A stretch of DNA of 40,000 nucleotides from Candidatus Altimarinota bacterium. GTDB lineage: Bacteria; Patescibacteriota; Gracilibacteria; UBA4473. Positions 4,652-40,000 of this stretch are shown in pieces. The position numbers were made by a program, and so were the translations under genes. The stretch spans positions 469,090 through 509,089 of the forward strand of contig OY781871.1 in assembly GCA_963677105.1 (NCBI GenBank). The letters are read 5' to 3'. How positions within the stretch are numbered: position 1 is the first letter of the stretch; each line of letters opens with the position of its first letter. The notes beneath the pieces are model-generated. The model was not told the origin of the DNA. It was given only the letters and a program-made list of their open reading frames with translations, and did not search any database.

Positions 4652-4795
4652 AAGAGAAGTTTTATAAATTCGCCGCGAGTGTACTTTTTTTGGCGAACTT
4701 TTCCAGTAAAATTTAAACAACGGAAAAGAGCTCTGTGTGTAAACACCGAGCCCATTTCTTTTAAACAATCAATATCAACCAGTCGAGGGAATTGC

Positions 4796-6731: not shown

Positions 6732-6882
6732 TACTCACTCCTTTTTTTTATTCTACCCAGCATTAGGCAGGAATCTTCTCGCCAAGACAAAAAGGTCTCT
6801 ACCTAATAACCTATTGAAATGAAAAAGATCTCTTACCAACTGTGGATTCAAATATTGTATCTGCTCCAAGTTGGACAAGGGT

Positions 6883-6910
6883 CTTATACTCTTTTTTTGT
6901 AAAATGTCAA
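6883..6910 (-). promoter_or_regulatory. Sigma70-like promoter for the 224-aa ORF
   Basis: On the minus strand: TTGACA (complement of 6905-6910), 16-nt spacer, TATAAG (complement of 6883-6888). Confidence 0.45.
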
Positions 6911-6925
6911 CCTGTATCAGAAACT

Positions 6926-6953
6926 TTGGCAAAAGAATTTCACAGAGTATACT
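6926..6953 (+). promoter_or_regulatory. Promoter of rmuC; predicts a leaderless mRNA
   Basis: TTGGCA (6926-6931), 16-nt spacer, TATACT (6948-6953), then 7 nt to the ATG at 6961. Confidence 0.5.
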
Positions 6954-6960
6954 CCCTAAG

Positions 6961-8013
6961 ATGGACACAACAATGTATATACTCGGTGGGCTTATTTTAG
7001 TGGCAGTGATTACGCTCATTGTACTTCAACTCCGATCACAAGCGACTGAAAATCCTCAGGTTTTGGAAGAATTGAAGCGAGATCGCGAAACACGGTTCCG
7101 AGAAGCAGAAGCATTGAAAAATGAACTTCGTTCAACACGAGAAGATTTACAAAAACAATTTCACCGAGTCAATCAAACGGTTGACACAAAGCTTTCTGAA
7201 AATTCAAAACAGCTCAATAATCGACTCGATAAAAGTTCTCTTGTAATTGGAAATCTTCAAAAAGAACTGGGGAAGATGGGGGAAATCGGAGCAAAGATTG
7301 AAAATCTTGATAAAATTCTTCGTGCCCCAAAAGGACGTGGTTCCCTTGGAGAACAAACTCTGGAAGAACTTCTCAGTACAACTTTTCCTGTAAATATGTG
7401 GGGACGACAAGTAGCTATTGGACGAGTTGGCGTTGTGGATGCTGTTGTAAAAACTTCGAACGGAATGATTCCGATTGATGCAAAATTTCCACTCCCTGCC
7501 TTCGAAGCATTAGTAAATGCAGAAAATGATAAAGACCGTGACGAAGCACAACGCGAGTTTCAAAAAAATGTAAAATCTCGAATTAATGAAGTAGCAAAAT
7601 ATATTCAGCCGAGTGAGGGGACTTTGGATTTCGCAATTATTTTTCTTCCAAACGAAAATATTTATTACGAGGCAGCTATTCGTTCTGTCGATTTGTCGGA
7701 ATATGCACGTACGAAAAAAGTGCTTATTACTGGACCAAATACAATGTTGTATGTGCTTCAAGTTTTGTTGCAAGCATATCAATCTCAACAATTTGCGTCA
7801 AAGGCAAAAGAAGCTCTTGCACAACTTACTGGCGTAAAAAATCAGGCACAGAAACTCGATGAAGCCATTGCTTTGGTAGAAAAACATCTTGGAAATGCTG
7901 GATCCAAGTTGGGAGATGTAAAAAAGGAAAACGAAAAATTACAAACACAAATTGAAAAAGTGACAGAACTCGAGTCTGGACTTGATGCCGAACAAGCACC
8001 TTTATTAAAATAA
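6961..8013 (+). CDS. rmuC: DNA recombination protein RmuC
   Basis: N-terminal TM segment, long coiled coil, then the RmuC core LRAPKGRGSLGEQTLEELL, IPIDAKFPL, DFAIIFLPNENIYYEA. The start is trimmed to 6961. Confidence 0.85.
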   Translation: MDTTMYILGGLILVAVITLIVLQLRSQATENPQVLEELKRDRETRFREAEALKNELRSTREDLQKQFHRVNQTVDTKLSENSKQLNNRLDKSSLVIGNLQKELGKMGEIGAKIENLDKILRAPKGRGSLGEQTLEELLSTTFPVNMWGRQVAIGRVGVVDAVVKTSNGMIPIDAKFPLPAFEALVNAENDKDRDEAQREFQKNVKSRINEVAKYIQPSEGTLDFAIIFLPNENIYYEAAIRSVDLSEYARTKKVLITGPNTMLYVLQVLLQAYQSQQFASKAKEALAQLTGVKNQAQKLDEAIALVEKHLGNAGSKLGDVKKENEKLQTQIEKVTELESGLDAEQAPLLK

Positions 8014-8017
8014 CTAA

Positions 8018-8052
8018 AGTTTGTACTTTACTCTTTGTTATTTGAAATTTGA
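8018..8052. repeat. Heptamer-phased array A (5 units)
   Basis: AGTTTGT ACTTTAC TCTTTGT TATTTGA AATTTGA. It fills the 39-nt gap between the convergent stop codons of rmuC (8011-8013) and the PilX-like gene (8053-8055). Confidence 0.6.
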
Positions 8053-8847
8053 TCAATTCTCTCTGTGCAATAATCCAAAATCAAAAAACGGATTAAGGTT
8101 TTTTTGTCGATACTCAAATTCGATAATTTTTTCTCGCCCAGCGGCTTTCCCAATTGCTCGCACATGTGTTTGTGCTGGTGCCATTTCTCCATTTAATGAC
8201 TTTACTTTTCCTGATATATTACCATTACCAAAATTTGTAAGAGAGATAAAACATAAGTCGTCATCTAAAAATGAACTTAAAAAATCTTGAATATTTTTAT
8301 CAACTGGTAAATCCGTTCCATTGTCCCACCCTCCTATTGATATTTCTGTTATTAGATTTCCACTTGCACGAGCCTGTAGCATTTCTGTTGTGTTCACAAG
8401 AGAATTATTACATTGGATTTTCCACTGTAAATCGCTCACTGTAGCCGGTGGATCAATATTGATTTCAAAGTCTTTAACTAATTTTTGTACCACAAGCATT
8501 TCGTCATTTGTATCAAGCCCTAATTGCCAACGAAGTATTGTTTTGGGCGGAAGGGAAAAGGGAAACTCTGTTTTTGAATTTTCTACAAACACTTCTGTAA
8601 TCGATGCATTCGGAAGAATTGTTTCGATATTTACGTAATTTATTGGCGATGTCTTCAAGGAAAGCAATGATTGTTCAACTCCTGATTCCGCTGCGAAATA
8701 AGCTCTTTCTGCAAGCAATAAATCTGCTGAAAACTGGAGTTCGTCCGAAACAATCTTGGTCAAAGCAAGTGCAAGAGAAATCAACATTCCTGAGATTATC
8801 AGTGTCGGAAGAAGAATCGTTCCATCGTTTTTCACACGAATATTCAT
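8053..8847 (-). CDS. PilX-like minor pilus component (N-terminal TM anchor)
   Basis: MNIRVKNDGTILLPTLIISGMLISLALALTKIV followed by AERAYFAAESGVEQ. It is the last gene of the pseudopilin operon, and its ATG overlaps the upstream stop (ATGA). Confidence 0.5.
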   Translation of the reverse strand: MNIRVKNDGTILLPTLIISGMLISLALALTKIVSDELQFSADLLLAERAYFAAESGVEQSLLSLKTSPINYVNIETILPNASITEVFVENSKTEFPFSLPPKTILRWQLGLDTNDEMLVVQKLVKDFEINIDPPATVSDLQWKIQCNNSLVNTTEMLQARASGNLITEISIGGWDNGTDLPVDKNIQDFLSSFLDDDLCFISLTNFGNGNISGKVKSLNGEMAPAQTHVRAIGKAAGREKIIEFEYRQKNLNPFFDFGLLHREN

Positions 8848-13540: not shown

Positions 13541-15187
13541 ATGACACAGGACTTAAATGCAACCGAAGCATCTCCTCTTGAACAGGTGAATCGAGAGCTT
13601 GATGATAAAAAAGCGCGTCAACGCGCTGCTTCCTCTGGATTGCCATATGTTGATCTGCGACATTTTGATATTAATATTGATGCGCTTCGTTTGACAAAAA
13701 AAGAAGTCGTGGAGGAGGCTCATGCAATTCCTTTCGATTTATTAGGGAAAAGGGTACGGATTGCTTTTCTAGGAGAAAAATCCGTTGCAGCAGATAATCT
13801 CGCTCATTCTCTTGAAGAACAGGGTTTTGCTGTCGAATGGACAATTTGCTCTATGGCTGGATTAGAACAAGCAATGCGGGAATATGATTCACACATGTTT
13901 GTGCGACATAAAATTGAATTGCGTACTGAATCAAGAGAAACCAAAGAGCAAGAATTAACCGCTCATTTGCAAGATTTCTCAACACTAGAACCCCATCTTA
14001 AAACACTTTCTTCTGGAGAATTACTAAATGAAATTGAACTTCTTGCTGTTTCGTCTCAGGCGTCGGACGTACATTTCCAACCAGGAAGAGATGAAATGGT
14101 TGTACGAGTAAGAATTGATGGTGTATTACATGATGTATTAAAAATTCCGATTAAAATTGCTGAACAACTCGTTACTCGGATAAAATATGAAGCCGGAATG
14201 CGTGCAAATATTACTAATTCTCCACAAGATGGAGCCATTTGTTTCGAAATAAATGGAAGGAAGGTTGATCTTCGTGTTTCTACTCTTCCTACACCAACCG
14301 TTGAATCTGTCGTTTTTCGAATACTGGATTCTTCACAGGGAATTTTAACTTTTTCGGAACTCGGATTTACCCCACATGTTGAGAAAAAAATATTAACTTC
14401 TCTTCAGCGACATAGTGGAATTATACTTGTAACTGGACCAACTGGATCTGGAAAAACAACAACTTTGTATTCTATGTTGGCGGAACTCAACACGCCAGAA
14501 AAAAAATTAGTAACACTTGAAGATCCGATTGAATATCACCTAAATGGAGTATCTCAATCACAAGTTGATGAAAACAGTAACTATACATTTGATTCTGGAT
14601 TCAAATCATTGCTCCGACAAGATCCTGATGTGATTTTAGTGGGAGAGATTCGTACATTAGAAACAGCAAAACTCGCCTTTGAAGCAGCATTAACTGGACA
14701 TACTGTGTTGTCGTCTTTACATTCAAACTCCGCTGTTGGTGCCATTTCCCGTTTGCGGAATCTTGGGGTTAAAGATGTGAATACTGCGCCAACAATTTCT
14801 GCAATATTTGCTCAACGATTGGTCCGTCGAGTCTGTAAAAAATGCTGCAAACAAGAAGTAGCAAAAGACAATGATCGTGTAAACTCTGCAATAGAACGAT
14901 TACAAAAAATTCTTCCCGAACAGAAAATTCCAAACACTGTTTCCGTTGCAGAAGGATGTAAAGATTGTTCTTTCACCGGATATTCAGGACAAATAGCAAT
15001 AAGCGAAACTTTCGTGGTAGACGATATTCTTCGTGAAATGATTTTGAACGGTGTTTTTGAAACAGAAATGCTAGAACATCTACGTAAAAACACAGACTAT
15101 GTTTCTCTTTGGGAAGACGGTGTGTTGAAAGTTTTGGAAGGTATTACCACGTTAGACGAAATTGAACGTGTCGTTGGAATGTCTTAG
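13541..15187 (+). CDS. pilB: Type IV pilus assembly ATPase (GspE/PilB family)
   Basis: T2SSE_N domain, Walker A GPTGSGKTTT, and the tetracysteine cluster CKKCC...CKDCSFTGYSG. Confidence 0.9.
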   Translation: MTQDLNATEASPLEQVNRELDDKKARQRAASSGLPYVDLRHFDINIDALRLTKKEVVEEAHAIPFDLLGKRVRIAFLGEKSVAADNLAHSLEEQGFAVEWTICSMAGLEQAMREYDSHMFVRHKIELRTESRETKEQELTAHLQDFSTLEPHLKTLSSGELLNEIELLAVSSQASDVHFQPGRDEMVVRVRIDGVLHDVLKIPIKIAEQLVTRIKYEAGMRANITNSPQDGAICFEINGRKVDLRVSTLPTPTVESVVFRILDSSQGILTFSELGFTPHVEKKILTSLQRHSGIILVTGPTGSGKTTTLYSMLAELNTPEKKLVTLEDPIEYHLNGVSQSQVDENSNYTFDSGFKSLLRQDPDVILVGEIRTLETAKLAFEAALTGHTVLSSLHSNSAVGAISRLRNLGVKDVNTAPTISAIFAQRLVRRVCKKCCKQEVAKDNDRVNSAIERLQKILPEQKIPNTVSVAEGCKDCSFTGYSGQIAISETFVVDDILREMILNGVFETEMLEHLRKNTDYVSLWEDGVLKVLEGITTLDEIERVVGMS

Positions 15188-15222
15188 TAAAAGTACAAAT
15201 TTCAAAGTACGAACTACAAAAT
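15188..15222. repeat. Heptamer-phased array B (5 units, opposite orientation)
   Basis: TAAAAGT ACAAATT TCAAAGT ACGAACT ACAAAAT, starting at the base after the pilB stop (15185-15187). Confidence 0.6.
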
Positions 15223-16193: not shown

Positions 16194-16390
16194 TTATTAA
16201 TTATACAAAAAATGGCTATGGTTTGGATCGACATAGAGGCAACTTATACACCAGATGATCAAAAGGAAACGAAGACATTCGTACAAGAGCTTTTTGGTTT
16301 ACAAAATCGTCTTTTAGTCGAGGCAGAAAAAAAACGTAAAATAGAACTAGAAACTTTAATCGCCACACGTTTAGAGATAGAAATCTAAAT

Positions 16391-16432
16391 TTTTTGTTCT
16401 TTGAACTTTGTACTTTCTTATTTGTAATCTGA
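16391..16432. repeat. Heptamer-phased array C (6 units)
   Basis: TTTTTGT TCTTTGA ACTTTGT ACTTTCT TATTTGT AATCTGA, ending 2 nt before the ftsE stop (16435-16437). Confidence 0.6.
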
Positions 16433-16434
16433 GC

Positions 16435-17130
16435 TTAAATTATTCCCCGAAAAGCTTTTTCTATTGGACAGGATTTTTCATCGAATAATATTTTCCCCGC
16501 TTCTAGTCGAATTACCCGCGGAGTCAACGCTTTTATTAAAACGGGATCATGTGTTGAAAACAATACAGTTAATCCTTGTGTTAAGTGTAAATGTTGCAAT
16601 AAGTCGGCAATATCCCGAGAATTTTTTGGATCGAGATTTCCCGTAATTTCATCTGCAATTAATATTTTCGGATCATGTACAAGTGAGCGAGCGATCGCAG
16701 TTCGTTGTTTTTCTCCGCCAGACAACTCATGGGGAAATGCGTCCATTCGGTGGCTCAATCCAACTAAGTCGAGAAGTTCCGGAACCTTCTGGGAAATCTT
16801 TTCATCTTCTCCACATACTTCAAGAGCAAAGGAGACGTTATCAAACACCGTTTTCTTTGGTAATAAACGAAAATCCTGAAATGCGACTCCAATTTGTCGA
16901 CGATAATGTTGCATGCTTCCGGAAGTTAGATCAGACAACAAAATATTATCGAGAAAAATATTTCCTTCTGTCGGATGTACTTCTCCCGTCAGGAGACGAA
17001 ACAATGAAGACTTTCCTGCGCCAGAAACCCCCAATACTGCAACCATTTCTTGTGGATGAATCTCAAAGGAAATGTCTCGAAGAACAGACTGATTGCCAAG
17101 GTCGAGCGAAACGTTATCAAATTTCAACAT
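16435..17130 (-). CDS. ftsE: Cell-division ABC ATPase FtsE-like
   Basis: Walker A GVSGAGKSS, signature LSGGEKQR, Walker B ILIADE. Length and N-terminus are FtsE-like. There is no adjacent ftsX. Confidence 0.7.
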   Translation of the reverse strand: MLKFDNVSLDLGNQSVLRDISFEIHPQEMVAVLGVSGAGKSSLFRLLTGEVHPTEGNIFLDNILLSDLTSGSMQHYRRQIGVAFQDFRLLPKKTVFDNVSFALEVCGEDEKISQKVPELLDLVGLSHRMDAFPHELSGGEKQRTAIARSLVHDPKILIADEITGNLDPKNSRDIADLLQHLHLTQGLTVLFSTHDPVLIKALTPRVIRLEAGKILFDEKSCPIEKAFRGII

Positions 17131-21151: not shown

Positions 21152-21456
21152 ATTGATTCAGTTCTCAAATATAAAACTACAAATTCCAATTATCTCTTCT
21201 TTTATAGTCACGATAATTTTCTTGTTTCTAGTAAATTTCGCAAGTTTTCAAGAGGCTTCTTAAAATTTTGACAAAACAATCAATCGACAATAATCTTCCT
21301 CTGAAATGATTATTATTTTCAAACAACATCGCGGTTGTCGTCCCACAGGAAAAGGACGGAAAGAAATTTGATAAATAACATCGTGGATTCTTCCACTCTT
21401 TATGCGGAACAGATAGGTTTGTTCCCAACCATTTTTAACTTTTAACTCCCTAAAAA

Positions 21457-31304: not shown

Positions 31305-34223
31305 TTAAAATTTAGAAAACGTCTCTCGATACGCATCACTCAATTTCTCTACAGAAACTGCATCAAGTCCCGCAATAACTAAGTCATCTCCAGCAACTTC
31401 TCCAATCTCAATCGCTTCTGGGAAAAGTTTTTCAAGCTCCCCAACTTTGTTTGAGGCGACGGAAACAAGGAATCGCGATTTTGATTCAGACCACATTGCT
31501 GTAGATAAATCTTCTGAAATTTTCGATAAATCAACGTGAGCACCAAGCTGTCCTGCTACGCAAGATTTCGCTAATGCTGTCGCCAATCCTCCTTGCCAAA
31601 CGTGTTGAGAAGAAGCGAGCAATCCGCTCTGATGCGCCACAAACATCCGATCGTAACGATCTTTTGATTCTTCTGCATTTAATACCGGAACAATAGAGTC
31701 TTTCAGTTCTTTCATATTACTAAACTCAGAACCTCCAAATTCAGCGCTCGTTTCGCCGATGACAAATATTTTGTCTCCTGCCATTTTCCAATCGATCGTT
31801 TGTACTTTGTTCGCATCTGGAATCACGCTTAATGTTGAAATCAAAAGCGTTGGCGGAACGGAAATTTTTATCTCTTTATCGTTCGCGTCGTATCCGCGGA
31901 AGTCGTTAAACATTGAATCTTTCCCAGAAATATATGGCGTTCCATAAATGGTTGCTACGTCATAACACGCTTTTGCTGTTTCTAAAAGCTGACCAAGTCT
32001 CTCGACTTCATCAGAACTGCACCAACAAAAGTTATCCATAATCGCCATGTGATCTATGTTCGCTCCCGTCGCAACTGCTGACGCAACTGCGTCATCAATC
32101 GTCGCCGCAGCCATTGCATACGGATTCATATTCGTCATCCGTGGGTTCAACGCGTGAGATGTCACAACCGCTTTATTCGAAGTCAAAACTGGACGAACAA
32201 CTGCCGCCGCGCCATTCACTCTCCCTTTTCCTTGAAACGGTTTGACCACGCTTCCACCAAGAACTTCGTGATCATATTGCTGAGAAATCCATTGATTAGA
32301 CGTCACATTCGGTCGTTTCAACATTTCTACGATGTCCGCAGAAGAGGTTTTTATTTCCAGTGTTGCTGGTAATTCATGTTGTTTCCACTCAGCTTTCAGT
32401 TGCTCTCGTGGCCATCCTGTAGCGAGAAAATTGAGGGAAAGATCAAAAATCTTTTTCCCATCCCAGAGAATTTGTCCTCTTCCGCTGTCAGTAAATTTCC
32501 CAAGAACGGTTGCCTCTACTCCGTGTTTTGTAAATATTTTTATAAATGCATCTACTTTCCCCTGCGGAACAGAAAATGTCATTCGCTCTTGAGATTCAGA
32601 AATCCAAATCTGCCACGGCTCAAGATTCGGATATTTCAATGGAACTCTCTCCAAATGAACTTCAAATCCTCCCGCTTCTTCCCCAAGTTCTCCGATTGTT
32701 CCAGAAATTCCTCCTGCTCCACAATCGTGAACCGAGTTGATAAATCCACCTTCGCGCAAATCGTAAATAACTGCGTCTGATAATTTTTTTTGTGTAATCG
32801 GATCTCCGATTTGAACGGCTGTCGCCGGACTTCCTTCATCCAATGCTTCTGAACTAAATGTCGCTCCATGTACTCCATCCATTCCAACACGTCCTCCAAC
32901 GACAACGATTGCGTCGCCCGCTTTCGCTGATTTTTCACTTGAATCGGTTCCGTCTAAATTCCGTGGAATAAGACCGATTGTTCCCGCAAAAACGAGTGGT
33001 TTCCCCGCATATCCATCATCGAAATACGTAAAACCAAGTGGCGTTGGAATTCCTGACTGATTTCCTCCTTCATTCACTCCCTCCACAACTCCATCGAGGA
33101 TTTCTCGCGGTTGAAGAATCGGATTTGATTTCTTTTTTCCGCGATACAAATCGAACGTCTTTCGTGGGTCGGCTGTACAAAATCCATATCGATTAATTAC
33201 TGGTTTCGAACCACGTCCATATCCAATACAATCACGATTTACTCCGACAATTCCTGTCATCGCTCCTCCAAGTGGATCAAGCGCTGATGGAGAATTGTGC
33301 GTTTCCATTTTATCTGAAACAACCCACTCATCATCAAAATCAATTCCTCCAGAATTGTCTGAAAAAACCGAAACACAGAAATCGTCTTTCCCTTTGTTCT
33401 TTCGAATATCTACGGTCGCTTGGCGAATAAATGTTTTGAAAATTCCTTTCTCGTGTTCGTTGATTGGGTTTGCAAAAATGGTGTGTCGACAATGTTCTGA
33501 CCAAGTTTGAGCAATCGATTCCAACTCAATGTCGAACGGGTTTCGTCCTTCTTCACGGAAATAATCTCGAATCGTGTGTAGGTAAAGAAGCGACAAAGCA
33601 AGTGGTCCACGACGTGTTCCATCTGGAGAAAGAATTCCTTTTTTTCCGAGCTCAATAAGTTCTTCGTCTGAAACTTCCAGATTTACTTCCATCGGCGCGG
33701 CTGGTGCGTGCAACTTTACTTCTGGAGCAAAAATATCCATTCCTCCGTCTTTCTGAAATGCTTCGTGTGATTTCACAGAAATTCTTTGGATAAGCGGATT
33801 CGCAAAAAGTCTTCCTATTTGTTGCGCTTGTTTCTCTGAAATGTTTCCAGAAACATAGAGAAGTACGGAACTATAAGCGTTTTCATGTGGCACGTTAAAC
33901 TTTATTCCGAATTTGTTTTCAATAGATTCTACAACTGTCGATCCGACATTATCAGTAACTCCTGGCAAGAACCCGATTTCAATCGCCCAATCAAATTCTC
34001 GAAATATGTCCGGATCATCAATATTAAATGATTCATAAACAGGATTTGTAAGCATTTCGCCAACTTTTTCCTGCTCACTTGGTTCAAATTCTCGAACAAT
34101 TGTGTAAATATTTGTTGTCGCTAATTTGGTTATTTGAAATCCAGCTGCCTGAATTTTCGTTTGGAAACTAACCGCACGATTATCTTGTACGGTGTTCTCG
34201 ATCTCGATGCGAAATGCGTTCAT
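31305..34223 (-). CDS. purL: Phosphoribosylformylglycinamidine synthase, PurS-like N-terminal region fused to PurL (no glutaminase domain)
   Basis: ESIAQTWSEHCRHTIF, HNSPSALDP, and the AIR-synthase-like duplicated core. About 200 aa precede the core as a PurS-like N-terminus. The start is trimmed to 34223. Confidence 0.88.
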   Translation of the reverse strand: MNAFRIEIENTVQDNRAVSFQTKIQAAGFQITKLATTNIYTIVREFEPSEQEKVGEMLTNPVYESFNIDDPDIFREFDWAIEIGFLPGVTDNVGSTVVESIENKFGIKFNVPHENAYSSVLLYVSGNISEKQAQQIGRLFANPLIQRISVKSHEAFQKDGGMDIFAPEVKLHAPAAPMEVNLEVSDEELIELGKKGILSPDGTRRGPLALSLLYLHTIRDYFREEGRNPFDIELESIAQTWSEHCRHTIFANPINEHEKGIFKTFIRQATVDIRKNKGKDDFCVSVFSDNSGGIDFDDEWVVSDKMETHNSPSALDPLGGAMTGIVGVNRDCIGYGRGSKPVINRYGFCTADPRKTFDLYRGKKKSNPILQPREILDGVVEGVNEGGNQSGIPTPLGFTYFDDGYAGKPLVFAGTIGLIPRNLDGTDSSEKSAKAGDAIVVVGGRVGMDGVHGATFSSEALDEGSPATAVQIGDPITQKKLSDAVIYDLREGGFINSVHDCGAGGISGTIGELGEEAGGFEVHLERVPLKYPNLEPWQIWISESQERMTFSVPQGKVDAFIKIFTKHGVEATVLGKFTDSGRGQILWDGKKIFDLSLNFLATGWPREQLKAEWKQHELPATLEIKTSSADIVEMLKRPNVTSNQWISQQYDHEVLGGSVVKPFQGKGRVNGAAAVVRPVLTSNKAVVTSHALNPRMTNMNPYAMAAATIDDAVASAVATGANIDHMAIMDNFCWCSSDEVERLGQLLETAKACYDVATIYGTPYISGKDSMFNDFRGYDANDKEIKISVPPTLLISTLSVIPDANKVQTIDWKMAGDKIFVIGETSAEFGGSEFSNMKELKDSIVPVLNAEESKDRYDRMFVAHQSGLLASSQHVWQGGLATALAKSCVAGQLGAHVDLSKISEDLSTAMWSESKSRFLVSVASNKVGELEKLFPEAIEIGEVAGDDLVIAGLDAVSVEKLSDAYRETFSKF

Positions 34224-34303
34224 AAATTCGTAAAAAATACGCCAATAGTGTAGTGTCTTTCTCTTTTTTAGCAACGAAAATTTCCGTTAATTATAACATT
34301 CCA

Positions 34304-34338
34304 TTTTTGCACTTTGTACTTTGTAATTTGATATTTTA
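34304..34338. repeat. Heptamer-phased array D (5 units)
   Basis: TTTTTGC ACTTTGT ACTTTGT AATTTGA TATTTTA. The last unit overlaps the metG stop (34336-34338). Confidence 0.6.
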
Positions 34339-35805
34339 TCCCTCCTCCGCTCGCTGAAACAAAATCCCTGCTTCCCCGACCCTTTTCTCGTCACCAATCA
34401 TCTTCCACATTTTTGGTGCCGTTTCTGGCAAAAGAATTTCTGACATCTTAGCAATTGTTTTTAGATGAAATAAAAGTCGTGCAAAAACCTGCGTTGCCCC
34501 TTTTGGATCAGTTTTAAATAATTTCCATGGCTCTTTCTCGTTTAGCAGTAAATTTGCTTTACTCGCCTCATAAAACATCTCCTCAATTGCTGAACGCAAA
34601 GATTTGTCCTCCATATATTGATTGAAAAGAACTAAGTCGTTTTGAACATCTTGCTTCTCTCTTACCATAGTTACCCACTCTTCATTTTCGGGATTCATTG
34701 GTGCCCATTCTGGAGTTTGCCCGTCTAAAAATTTATGAATCAAAACGATTACTCTATTAAAAAGATTCCCAATTCCTCCTGCTAATTTCTTGTTATACAA
34801 ATCGTGAAATTGTTCTTGTGAAAAATCTCCATCATTCCCAAATTCAAATAAAGACAACAAACCAATTCTCACAGCGTCATTCCCATATTTTGTGGCAAGA
34901 TCGAGTGGAGAAATCACGTTGCCCAAAGACTTTGACATTTTCTCTCCATCGACCGTGAAAAATCCATGAGCGAATTCTTCTGTTGGCGTTTCAATTCCCG
35001 CAGAAATCAACATCGCTGGCCAAATCACACAATGGAATCGTGTAATATCTTTCCCGAGCAAGTGAAGTGTATTTGACCAAAATTCATCATTGGGACAACC
35101 TGTTCGATAATTAATCAACGCATCAAACCACACATAAATTTTGTGATTTTCGTCCCAAGGAAGAGGAATTCCAAATTCTGCTCCTTCTCGACTAATAGAA
35201 ATGTCTTCGAGTCCTGCTTTTATAAAGGAAATCACTTCGTTACGACGCTTTTCTGGTTCAAGAAGTTTTGGATTCTTCGTGAATAGTTCGAGCAACTGAT
35301 CTTGATATTTCGAAAGTCGGAAAAAATAATTTTCTTCTTCTACCGCTTTCGGTGCTTTTTTGTGATCTGGACAATGTCCATTTTCGTCTAAATCAGAGGG
35401 TTTTAAAAAAGTTTCACATCCAGTGCAATAAAGCCCTTCATATTTTCCTTTGTAGATATCTCCTGCTTCATGAATTTTATTCAGAATTGCATGAACTGTT
35501 TTGTGGTGCCGTTTTTCTGTCGTACGAATAAAATCATCAAACTCAATGCCAATGTTTTTCCACGTATTTTTCCAACGAGCAGACATTGATTCCAAATATG
35601 GAACAATCTCTTCTCCAGCTGCGGCAGCCGCATCGACTGTTTTCTGTGAATTCTCATCTGTTCCGGTAAGAAAAAAGACACTTTCTTTTCCCAACTTCTG
35701 TCGCCAATATCGCGCCAATGTGTCAGCTGCCAGGGTACAATACGCATGTCCAATGTGTGGGACATCGTTTACATAATAGATTGGGGTCGTAATAAATTTT
35801 TTCAT
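34336..35805 (-). CDS. metG: Methionine--tRNA ligase (short form, no C-terminal tRNA-binding domain)
   Basis: PIYYVNDVPHIGHAY (HIGH motif), KMSKS, and the zinc knuckle CTGCETF...HCPDH. Confidence 0.93.
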   Translation of the reverse strand: MKKFITTPIYYVNDVPHIGHAYCTLAADTLARYWRQKLGKESVFFLTGTDENSQKTVDAAAAAGEEIVPYLESMSARWKNTWKNIGIEFDDFIRTTEKRHHKTVHAILNKIHEAGDIYKGKYEGLYCTGCETFLKPSDLDENGHCPDHKKAPKAVEEENYFFRLSKYQDQLLELFTKNPKLLEPEKRRNEVISFIKAGLEDISISREGAEFGIPLPWDENHKIYVWFDALINYRTGCPNDEFWSNTLHLLGKDITRFHCVIWPAMLISAGIETPTEEFAHGFFTVDGEKMSKSLGNVISPLDLATKYGNDAVRIGLLSLFEFGNDGDFSQEQFHDLYNKKLAGGIGNLFNRVIVLIHKFLDGQTPEWAPMNPENEEWVTMVREKQDVQNDLVLFNQYMEDKSLRSAIEEMFYEASKANLLLNEKEPWKLFKTDPKGATQVFARLLFHLKTIAKMSEILLPETAPKMWKMIGDEKRVGEAGILFQRAEEG

Positions 35806-35841: not shown

Positions 35842-36024
35842 AAGAGCAACTCATGCGCATCCGACCACTGAATTAACAGAAGAACATCATCATTGGTACT
35901 CGCGCCATGCATTTCATCGCTCGTAGTCTGACTTATACAAAATATCGTGTCAACTTTTTGGCTCGCCATTATTGTGAATTTCTTATAACAAAGAACCTTT
36001 TATGTTTTTGTAATTTGTTCTTTG

Positions 36025-36705
36025 CTATCTCCCCTTTGGGGCGTCAGCGACAAGCATATAGCCATGTCCACGAACGGTTTGTAACATTTTTGCGTCTTTC
36101 TCGAGTTTTGAACGAATTGATCGCATATAAACATCGATTACATTTGATTGCGCGCCGATAATATCGCCCCAAACCTGCTCGCTTAAATCTGTGCGAGAAA
36201 GCACCACATTTTTGTGAGATAAAAATGCAAACAGCAACTGAAATTCTCGTCGAGATAGCGTTAATAGTTTTTGACGCAAACGAACTTCTTTTTTTTCGAT
36301 GTCCATGACGAGCGGTCCACACGCAAGAATATTGTGTTTTTTCTCTAAACGACGACGCATCAATGCTCGAACGCGAGCGATAAATTCTGCGATTGAAAAA
36401 TTCTTAACTAAATAATCATCTGCGCCGATGTCTAGACCTCGCACACGATCTTCAACTCTTCCATATGAGGAAACTATTAAAACTAACGACGTATTTCCTC
36501 CGGCCCTTAGTCTGCGGAGAAGCTCTAATCCTGAAATTCCGGGCAAACCAATATCTAGAACAATTAAGTCGAATTTTTGTTCTCGAGCGACATTGAGCGC
36601 GTCCTCTGCTGTATGAACAACTACGCATTCAAATTTTTCCCCATAGAGCGCTTGCTCAAACAAACGAGCCATGTGTCGATCGTCATCGATAATGAGACAT
36701 CTCAT
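36025..36705 (-). CDS. OmpR-family response regulator (no adjacent kinase)
   Basis: REC domain (DLIVLDIGLPGISG) plus a winged-helix C-terminus (TVRGHGYML). Confidence 0.88.
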   Translation of the reverse strand: MRCLIIDDDRHMARLFEQALYGEKFECVVVHTAEDALNVAREQKFDLIVLDIGLPGISGLELLRRLRAGGNTSLVLIVSSYGRVEDRVRGLDIGADDYLVKNFSIAEFIARVRALMRRRLEKKHNILACGPLVMDIEKKEVRLRQKLLTLSRREFQLLFAFLSHKNVVLSRTDLSEQVWGDIIGAQSNVIDVYMRSIRSKLEKDAKMLQTVRGHGYMLVADAPKGR

Positions 36706-39786: not shown

Positions 39787-40000
39787 TACTTTTCCCAAAC
39801 AATACGTCCGCCCCTTCTACAAGAAAAACTTTCTCTATTCCTGCGTCAATCATTTTCTCCCAACAGCTTTCACAACACCACCAGTGTCCCCATAAATACA
39901 ATTCTGCTCCTTTGGGATTAGCGCCTCTTCTAAGAACATCTCGAAGGGCCGTTTGTTCCGCATGAAATTTTGGAGAACATCCTGGACAAGACCAATACAT
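39782..40000 (-). CDS. Cytidine/deoxycytidylate deaminase-family protein (dCMP deaminase/ComEB-like), C-terminal part; likely continues beyond the window
   Basis: HAEQTAL zinc motif and CCESC (PCxxC-type) motif. Only 12 aa precede HAE, so the Met at the window edge is probably not the true start. Confidence 0.55.
   Translation of the reverse strand: MYWSCPGCSPKFHAEQTALRDVLRRGANPKGAELYLWGHWWCCESCWEKMIDAGIEKVFLVEGADVLFGKSK

Follow-up and report, generated by a model that had tools for sequence, protein, structure and literature searches.

A stretch of 40,000 nucleotides from a Candidatus Altimarinota bacterium (hereafter the window) carries four arrays of tandem heptamers, each lying against the stop codon of a protein-coding gene. 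An initial annotation had given the sequences and coordinates of these arrays, and both match exactly at all four sites, designated A to D. The window belongs to a complete, single-contig genome of 962,416 bp with 36.4% GC (G000 below), and its arrays match the arms of a palindromic cassette that lies elsewhere in this genome, around a gene of the PF05635 family. Copies that stand alone, as those in the window do, are called solo arms:

8018-8052, minus strand: site A array, a solo arm of 5 units, read from the sequence
15188-15222, plus strand: site B array, a solo arm of 5 units
16391-16432, minus strand: site C array, a solo arm of 6 units
34304-34338, minus strand: site D array, a solo arm of 5 units

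Site A occupies a 39-nt gap in which rmuC (6871-8013, plus strand) converges with a gene at 8053-8847 (minus strand). It lies 0 nt from the stop of the latter and 4 nt from that of rmuC, and its minus-strand units read TCAAATT TCAAATA ACAAAGA GTAAAGT ACAAACT. Site B begins immediately 3' of the TAG stop of a pilB-like gene (13541-15187), again at 0 nt, and has a PIG-L deacetylase gene downstream; its units are TAAAAGT ACAAATT TCAAAGT ACGAACT ACAAAAT. At site C, 2 nt separate the array from the stop of an ftsE-like ABC ATPase gene (16435-17130, minus strand), and the minus-strand units are TCAGATT ACAAATA AGAAAGT ACAAAGT TCAAAGA ACAAAAA. On its other side, a 58-aa open reading frame (ORF; 16212-16388, plus strand) with no Pfam match stops 2 nt short of the array. 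At site D (minus-strand units TAAAATA TCAAATT ACAAAGT ACAAAGT GCAAAAA) the stop of metG (34336-35805, minus strand) overlaps the array by 3 nt, so that the first unit, TAAAATA, supplies the stop codon.

The abutment of all four arrays to stop codons was thus correctly described, as was the core AAAGTAC, which they have in common when read in gene sense. The names rmuC, pilB, ftsE and metG agree with Pfam, which gives RmuC, T2SSE, ABC_tran (ABC ATPase) and MetRS; the label PilX-like for the gene at 8053-8847 has no Pfam support. No Rfam family was matched in the window.

Genome-wide census and the PF05635 cassette

As the initial annotation had proposed, we built a position weight matrix (PWM) from the 21 window heptamers and scanned the genome for chains of at least four phased units. 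This returned 105 chains, compared with 1-2 in third-order Markov shuffles. A motif-free self-similarity scan found 27 period-7 stretches, with at most three for each of the other periods from 4 to 12 and none in the control, and all 27 of these stretches, selected without regard to motif, were of the CAAA/TTTG type. Chance is excluded as the origin of the four arrays.

The array core is (CAAANWW)n: CAAA is fixed every 7 nt, and the three spacer positions vary. The array consensus is T-CAAA-TT A-CAAA-NT A-CAAA-GT A-CAAA-NT W-CAAA. Array length has a peaked, not a geometric, distribution. Under strict counting, 44, 51, 6, 3 and 1 arrays have 4, 5, 6, 7 and 8 units, respectively, and lenient extension gives 20, 55 and 23 arrays of 4, 5 and 6 units, with a mode of five.

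Exactly one PF05635 (S23p/Avd-like four-helix-bundle) gene was found in G000, at 860133-860444 (98 bits). It sits in a complete palindromic cassette at 859.9-860.6 kb, outside the window. The cassette runs from a stop codon through a short GC-rich head (TCGCTNCGCT), five CAAANWW heptamers, the PF05635 gene and five TTTG-type heptamers to the stop of a gyrB-like gene. Its left flank reads TAG-TCGCTAGCG-TT-TCAATGT ACAAATT ACAAAGT GCAAAGT ACAAAAC, and its right flank, GTTTTGT ACTTTGC ACTTTGT ACACTGA TATCTGA, enters the stop codon of the gyrB-like gene, which is convergent. An exact inverted repeat of 22 nt is common to both arms.

The same geometry recurs without the gene. We found 21 gene-less inverted pairs, separated by -3 to 75 nt, and all 21 keep the order of the cassette, with the CAAA arm first and the TTTG arm second. 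In several of them, the second arm is followed by a mirrored head, agcgaagcga, and then by the stop of the opposing gene. This far-end head is present in gene-less pairs and in the cassette of a congeneric genome (G002), but not in the G000 cassette. This leaves approximately 76 arrays as solo arms, among them the four of the window.

The initial annotation had not recognized the arrays as a described element. They are not orphans, as they match the arm of the PF05635 cassette. We read them as copies of a genus-specific dispersed repeat, resembling repetitive extragenic palindromic (REP) sequences and miniature inverted-repeat transposable elements (MITEs), with the palindromic PF05635 cassette as its probable complete form. 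We place the probability of this reading at about two in three (0.68).

Array and cassette comparison across relatives

We compared the cassette and the arrays across a sample of 31 related genomes, in which G001 and G002 belong to the same genus as G000 and G015 to the same family. PF05635 was found in 17 of the 31. TTTG-type arrays were found in six genomes, all of which have PF05635. G001 and G002 carry an orthologous cassette whose proteins are 75-88% identical and which, as in G000, sits between sugar-transferase-like and gyrB-like genes. In these two genomes the cassette arms are of the CAAAC type and the dispersed arrays likewise (TTTGTAG/TTTGAAG); arms and solo arrays of G000 are TTTGTAC/TTTGCAC. 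More distant PF05635 genes have inverted arms of other heptamers (AGTTNNN, AGGTATT, CAATATT, GAACTTN, and TAGAATT).

Closely related PF05635 proteins have one heptamer type in common, and heptamer type co-varies with PF05635 protein lineage across genomes, which are few and related. Period-7 arrays number 27 in the 962 kb of G000 and 12 in 347 kb of G002, and there are none in 400 kb of the PF05635-negative G015. With so few related genomes, these comparisons are consistent support, not proof, for a link between arrays and cassette. The cassette occupies one and the same gap in all three genomes of the genus (loci L087 in G000, L116 on contig C4 of G002, and L117 on contig C188 of G001). The inner PF05635 gene is reversed in G001 and G002 relative to G000, which would fit inversion via the inverted arms.

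Conservation at orthologous gene ends, suggested initially as a check, was not observed for three of the four sites: arrays A, C and D are absent in G001, G002, or both, where the proteins are 71-87% identical. The site A array is absent from the rmuC gap in G002 and in another relative, G006, where the two stops nearly touch across a gap of a few bases. No counterpart of the site C array follows ftsE in G001 or G002, and none of the site D array follows metG in G002, G006 or G003. At the ftsE stop, G001 and G002 have a different convergent gene that extends right up to it, in the position where G000 has the 58-aa ORF. The G002 rmuC orthologue (C1:18024-19100, locus L113) showed one in-frame TGA in a tblastn-style match.

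The pilB 3' end behaved differently from the other three. Here G002 and G006 each have an array of their own type, CAAACT and AGAGTT(N), respectively, while no array follows pilB in G001 or G003. The G006 copy (locus L111, contig C25) is a double array, AAAGTTN/AGAGTTN. Unrelated array types have thus landed at the pilB 3' end more than once. In the reverse direction, one G002 array and one G001 array that could be placed by their flanks have no counterpart in G000. Across the genomes compared, the arrays behave like insertion/deletion polymorphisms and not like conserved regulatory sites. In a genome nearly devoid of spacer DNA, an inserted array largely creates its own gap.

Placement, strand polarity and competing readings

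Although crude ORFs cover 93% of the genome, approximately 80 of the 105 arrays are intergenic. Gaps with an array were distributed as follows:

Convergent gaps: 31 of 156 with an array
Co-directional gaps: 42 of 585 with an array
Divergent (promoter) gaps: 7 of 155 with an array

The distance from an array to the next start codon has a median of approximately 80 nt. Two kinds of junction with the upstream gene were seen. In class I, the array begins 0-4 nt after the stop or includes it; such inclusion of the host stop was seen for 14 of 62 sense arrays. In class II, the stop codon is followed by a GC-rich head of 10-13 nt (consensus TCGCTTCGCT), occasionally extended to a mini-hairpin of 7-9 bp, and then by the array. 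TAG is the stop in 17 of 24 head-bearing copies, compared with 20% genome-wide (p = 9e-8). An array with TAG and the TCGCTTCGCT head also lies directly after dnaA. The arrays colonise gene 3' ends, often providing the host stop codon. For the annotation of genomes of the candidate phyla radiation, this means that arrays remodel protein C-termini and should not be taken for conserved terminators.

Array orientation follows the replication strand. The cumulative GC skew of G000 forms a clean V that peaks near 0 kb and is lowest near 510 kb, a short way beyond window position 40000. Of the 105 arrays, 82 have their CAAA (purine-rich) strand on the G-rich strand of the chromosome, presumed to be the leading one (p = 6e-9); among solo arms, the split is 52 to 10 (52/62). 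Only approximately 56% of genes are on the G-rich strand. Array orientation switches at the skew minimum. Site B, with CAAA on the C-rich (lagging) strand, has the minority orientation. The replication rule holds for solo arms in convergent gaps by 20 to 3, and in divergent gaps by 7 to 0. In co-directional gaps, it describes solo arms better (25 to 7) than gene sense does (20 to 12), and lagging-strand genes have antisense over sense arrays by 9 to 4. G002 replicates the polarity in 10 of 11 arrays, with the switch where the skew of contig C1 changes sign; in this syntenic contig, the sign change is near 120 kb. The dnaA gene (G000:192924-194315) is approximately 300 kb from either skew turning point. 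Because dnaA, at 193 kb, is far from both, the polarity is stated relative to skew. Mutational skew was rejected as its cause, as the polarity is opposite to GC skew: the C-bearing strand of the array is the one on the G-rich strand.

Such polarity could also belong to a DNA signal oriented by replication or the chromosome, composed of polar sites that a translocase reads, or that are read on the lagging-strand template, in the style of FtsK-orienting polar sequences (KOPS), Chi or primase sites, and found in 3' gaps as the sole free DNA. The bias of the purine-rich strand, the switch at the skew minimum, the agreement of G002 and the opposition to mutational skew all fit a signal of this kind. 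Yet the arrays are clustered at gene ends and not evenly spaced, they turn over between congeners, and their absence from the 400 kb of same-family G015 means that they are no general requirement. The G-rich strand is the lagging-strand template and is single-stranded at the fork. IS200/IS605-type single-strand transposons have a similar strand bias, and the biology of these insertion sequences leads one to expect the same polarity of any element that inserts into single-stranded fork DNA. We consider a replication signal improbable.

For transcript ends, the initial annotation had proposed a hairpin-independent termination or 3'-end signal. In such a reading, the (CAAANWW)5 RNA after the stop would be bound by a factor, possibly the PF05635 pentamer discussed below, that stops RNA polymerase or blocks 3' exonucleases, and would substitute for hairpins in a genome without Rho. 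Rho (TIGR00767) was indeed not found in the 100%-complete G000, in a search whose control matched 12 of 14 reference genomes, which removes the Rho-dependent version of the proposal. Our own terminator scan of the window agreed with the initial annotation, with no hairpin+U terminator at sites A-D and good ones at approximately eight other gene ends. G000 thus plainly uses ordinary hairpin+U terminators elsewhere, and array-bearing ends are depleted in them: 10 of 52 had one in convergent gaps of at least 30 nt, compared with 80 of 154 other ends (odds ratio 0.22, p = 4e-5), and 6 of 37 compared with 79 of 271 in co-directional gaps. The arrays also abut stops in an oriented manner. In convergent gaps, a median of 3 nt separates the 5' end in CAAA sense from the same-sense stop, compared with a median of 33 nt between the far end and the opposing stop (21 to 2, p = 7e-5). 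The concentration of arrays in convergent and co-directional rather than divergent gaps, and their independent occurrence after pilB in three genomes, also fit a 3'-end signal.

Other results do not fit one. Solo arms in co-directional gaps track replication over gene sense, lagging-strand genes have more antisense than sense arrays, and the seven arrays in divergent gaps all follow the replication rule. In same-genus genomes, the gene ends orthologous to sites A, C and D carry no such array. The hairpin depletion shrinks to an odds ratio of 0.45 (p = 0.026) once short gaps count as well, since an array makes the gap that it occupies. Solo arms have no structure to speak of (mean z -0.43), and in sense orientation their RNA is rich in A and lacks a U tract; together with the lack of hairpin+U at sites A-D, this led us to reject an intrinsic (Rho-independent) terminator for solo arms. 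The oriented abutment and the hairpin depletion of the initial proposal hold genome-wide, but array orientation, the divergent-gap copies and the empty orthologous ends speak against termination as the function. We regard this explanation as unlikely, and give the arrays roughly one chance in six of a secondary 3'-end role. A promoter on the TTTG strand was also rejected, as the better sigma-70-like matches of the window did not include the arrays.

The oriented stop abutment and the hairpin depletion would be compatible with a selected function at 3' ends as well, and in this they weigh against the arrays being simply a dispersed repeat. Further points weigh on the same side. The near-invariance of the CAAA core is partly a product of the PWM score threshold. 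Cassette arms in some relatives have 4-9 units, such that five is the mode and not a rule. Strain-level pairs of empty and filled sites, which would prove insertion or define a target site, were not found: an exact-protein look-up returned nothing, a metagenome scan with PilB returned no relatives, and a contig scan with MetRS returned distant taxa only, the best, a Saccharibacteria MAG, at 48% identity. The arrays have no linked recombinase or transposase. A retroelement origin was rejected, as no reverse transcriptase (PF00078, RVT_1) was found in G000. Mobilisation by a REP-associated tyrosine transposase (RAYT) or IS200-type enzyme was rejected as well, based on the flanks of the following gene and on five Y1 loci without arrays:

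G000:402962-403348 (locus L124, 1372-1911), minus strand: Y1_Tnp (IS200/RAYT-like) gene, the sole Y1 gene, with HUH motif HFHFLL

This gene is flanked by a 12-bp palindrome, AAGTTCGAACTT, which is unlike the heptamer arrays. The 10-nt core of the palindrome, AGTTCGAACT, has 9 copies in the genome, 6 of them within 1.3 kb of the Y1 gene, and no heptamer arrays were found near the five Y1 loci. Among the 31 relatives, 14 have both PF01797 and PF05635, 3 have only PF05635, 3 have only PF01797, and 11 have neither (Fisher p = 0.001). We take this co-occurrence as a lead only, as kinship and general mobile-element load can explain it.

Three smaller features of the window relate to the arrays:

34290-34298, minus strand: extended -10-like box TGTTATAAT, between array D and a purL-like gene, read from the sequence
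36005-36025, minus strand: partial array of 3 units (plus strand TTTTTGT AATTTGT TCTTTGC), abutting the stop of a gene at 36025-36705 (minus strand)
21165-21185, plus strand: partial array of 3 units (TCAAATA TAAAACT ACAAATT)

The purL-like gene (31305-34274, minus strand) has AIRS and FGAR-AT domains by Pfam. With the TGTTATAAT box in front of it, array D likely lies between the metG stop and a putative promoter of the next gene. Several other arrays are 45-120 nt upstream of the next gene, which leaves space for a promoter. The two partial arrays are tentative members, because 3-unit chains arise by chance (26-48 per shuffled genome). Of two degenerate relatives suggested initially, the one at 21164-21190 corresponds to the partial array at 21165-21185, and the one at 4682-4715 is unsupported; the partial array at 36005-36025 was missing from that list.

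The PF05635 protein and comparison with known systems

The single PF05635 protein of G000, 123 aa in length, matches PDB entry 2RLD (E = 1e-30), which has five chains, and is basic, with 20 K+R compared with 12 D+E. The S23p protein of Xanthomonas is a homopentameric toroid, and in Coxiella the 23S rRNA intervening sequence (IVS) has strain-variable heptamer repeats beside its S23p ORF (PMC4990558). Avd is a pentameric, positively charged barrel (PMC6182149) and is homologous to the S23p/PF05635 four-helix bundle (PMC10053308). A five-unit array together with a five-subunit ring suggests one heptamer per subunit. The array is thus probably a binding site for the pentameric PF05635 protein, with five units for five subunits, and the protein-binding array offered as one option in the initial annotation remains plausible, with this pentamer as the candidate protein.

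We propose that a homopentameric four-helix-bundle protein would bind the five-unit array, one heptamer per subunit, and that the arms may spread or be retained via a step in which single-stranded DNA is sensed at the replication fork. Stop-codon-capped ends and selection in a spacer-poor genome, not dedicated termination, would account for the location of the arms next to stop codons, and transcript 3' ends would be affected only secondarily, if at all. A more speculative extension, which we hold only tentatively, is that S23p/PF05635 pentamers are sequence-specific readers of five-heptamer arrays and, by binding the lagging-strand template while it is single-stranded, drive or guard the dispersal of their own arms. 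This would make them a selfish system of protein plus repeat, maybe co-opted in Rho-less ultra-small genomes to mark gene ends. If true, such a reader system would account for the orphan IVS protein family as well as for the intergenic heptamer repeats of many phyla, including short tandemly repeated repetitive (STRR) sequences, TAACTGA repeats and others.

A general single-strand-binding protein could in principle occupy the same sites. A cold-shock protein, for example, might use the T-rich (N)CTTTG(N) strand as a platform, one protein per heptamer. G000 encodes one cold-shock domain (CSD) protein, and the CspB consensus GTCTTTG resembles ACTTTGT. CspB of B. subtilis binds heptamer repeats, one protein per heptamer, with a T-rich preference (MacGregor 2015, PMC4679880). 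Cold-shock proteins are near-universal, however, and arrays occur only where they match a PF05635 cassette; the heptamer type changes with the PF05635 lineage and not with Csp, and the five-unit mode and inverted-pair geometry would be left unexplained. We consider a cold-shock platform very improbable.

STRR and TAACTGA heptamer repeats and the four-helix-bundle proteins of IVSs have both been without explanation for decades. G000 is a clean case, as a small complete genome with one protein gene, one heptamer type and approximately 105 copies. It has three regularities that make the problem open to simple experiments: a five-unit mode beside a pentamer-forming family, stop-capped ends, and an approximately 80% replication-strand orientation that is reproduced in G002.

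Among dispersed repeats, REPs and bacterial interspersed mosaic elements (BIMEs) with their RAYTs, and the MITE-like Correia and enterobacterial repetitive intergenic consensus (ERIC) sequences, are small non-coding repeats of approximately 100 copies that lie after genes and in convergent gaps and are rare in divergent gaps. REP/BIME-RAYT repeats vary among relatives and have one cognate gene flanked by the repeat. The G000 arrays resemble REPs, BIMEs and MITEs in copy number, gap placement, turnover and the single cognate, repeat-flanked gene. In contrast to REP/BIME-RAYT systems, their unit is a non-palindromic tandem heptamer array and not a hairpin, and the cognate gene encodes a four-helix bundle and not an HUH transposase. 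Assignment to a REP/BIME-RAYT system was rejected on the same Y1 evidence, the AAGTTCGAACTT flanks and the lack of arrays at Y1 loci.

Short, abundant, intergenic sets of tandem heptanucleotides of the TAACTGA/STRR type offer a closer match, and the G000 arrays share these properties. The STRR sequences of cyanobacteria are similar intergenic heptanucleotide tandem repeats. The TAACTGA repeats of Beggiatoaceae, Cyanobacteria and Bacteroidetes likewise form short sets of one heptamer (2-6 copies); a genome has more than 100 of these sets, nearly all of them between genes (MacGregor 2015, PMC4679880). Like the G000 arrays, TAACTGA sets have stops in all three frames in one orientation and a patchy taxon distribution (PMC4679880). 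Most of them closely precede a start codon, and a translation role has been proposed for them (PMC4679880), whereas the G000 arrays abut stop codons and do not have this start-codon-upstream placement (the BOGUAY pattern). MacGregor 2015 (PMC4679880) gives neither a link to a four-helix-bundle gene nor a replication polarity for TAACTGA, and both are seen here.

On the protein side, the Avd proteins of diversity-generating retroelements are homologous four-helix bundles that form a pentameric basic barrel and bind nucleic acid (PMC6182149, PMC10053308). Unlike Avd systems, G000 has no reverse transcriptase and no template or variable repeats, and the apparent partner of its protein is a repeated 7-nt DNA or RNA word. 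In the literature searched, no paper tied PF05635 to dispersed heptamer arrays or gave their replication polarity. The present analysis adds the census, the five-unit mode beside a pentamer, the 21-to-0 pair geometry, the stop capping, the turnover at orthologous sites, and the replicated link to the replication strand.

The 23S rRNA IVSs with an S23p ORF in Coxiella burnetii, Leptospira and Xanthomonas contain the same PF05635 family, with the gene between terminal inverted repeats (PMC4990558). The Coxiella IVS has tandem heptamers (GACAGAT) beside the ORF in strain-variable number, as heptamers stand beside the PF05635 gene here, and the published view of S23p-bearing IVSs is that they are selfish elements (PMC4990558). 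The G000 cassette and all window copies differ in lying between protein-coding genes and not in 23S rRNA, and the arrays were therefore not classed as 23S rRNA IVSs. The G000 arms consist entirely of heptamers, and the approximately 100 gene-less copies, as solo arms and empty pairs, are stop-capped and replication-oriented. The closest described entities are S23p-bearing 23S rRNA IVSs together with intergenic heptamer repeats of the TAACTGA and STRR kinds.

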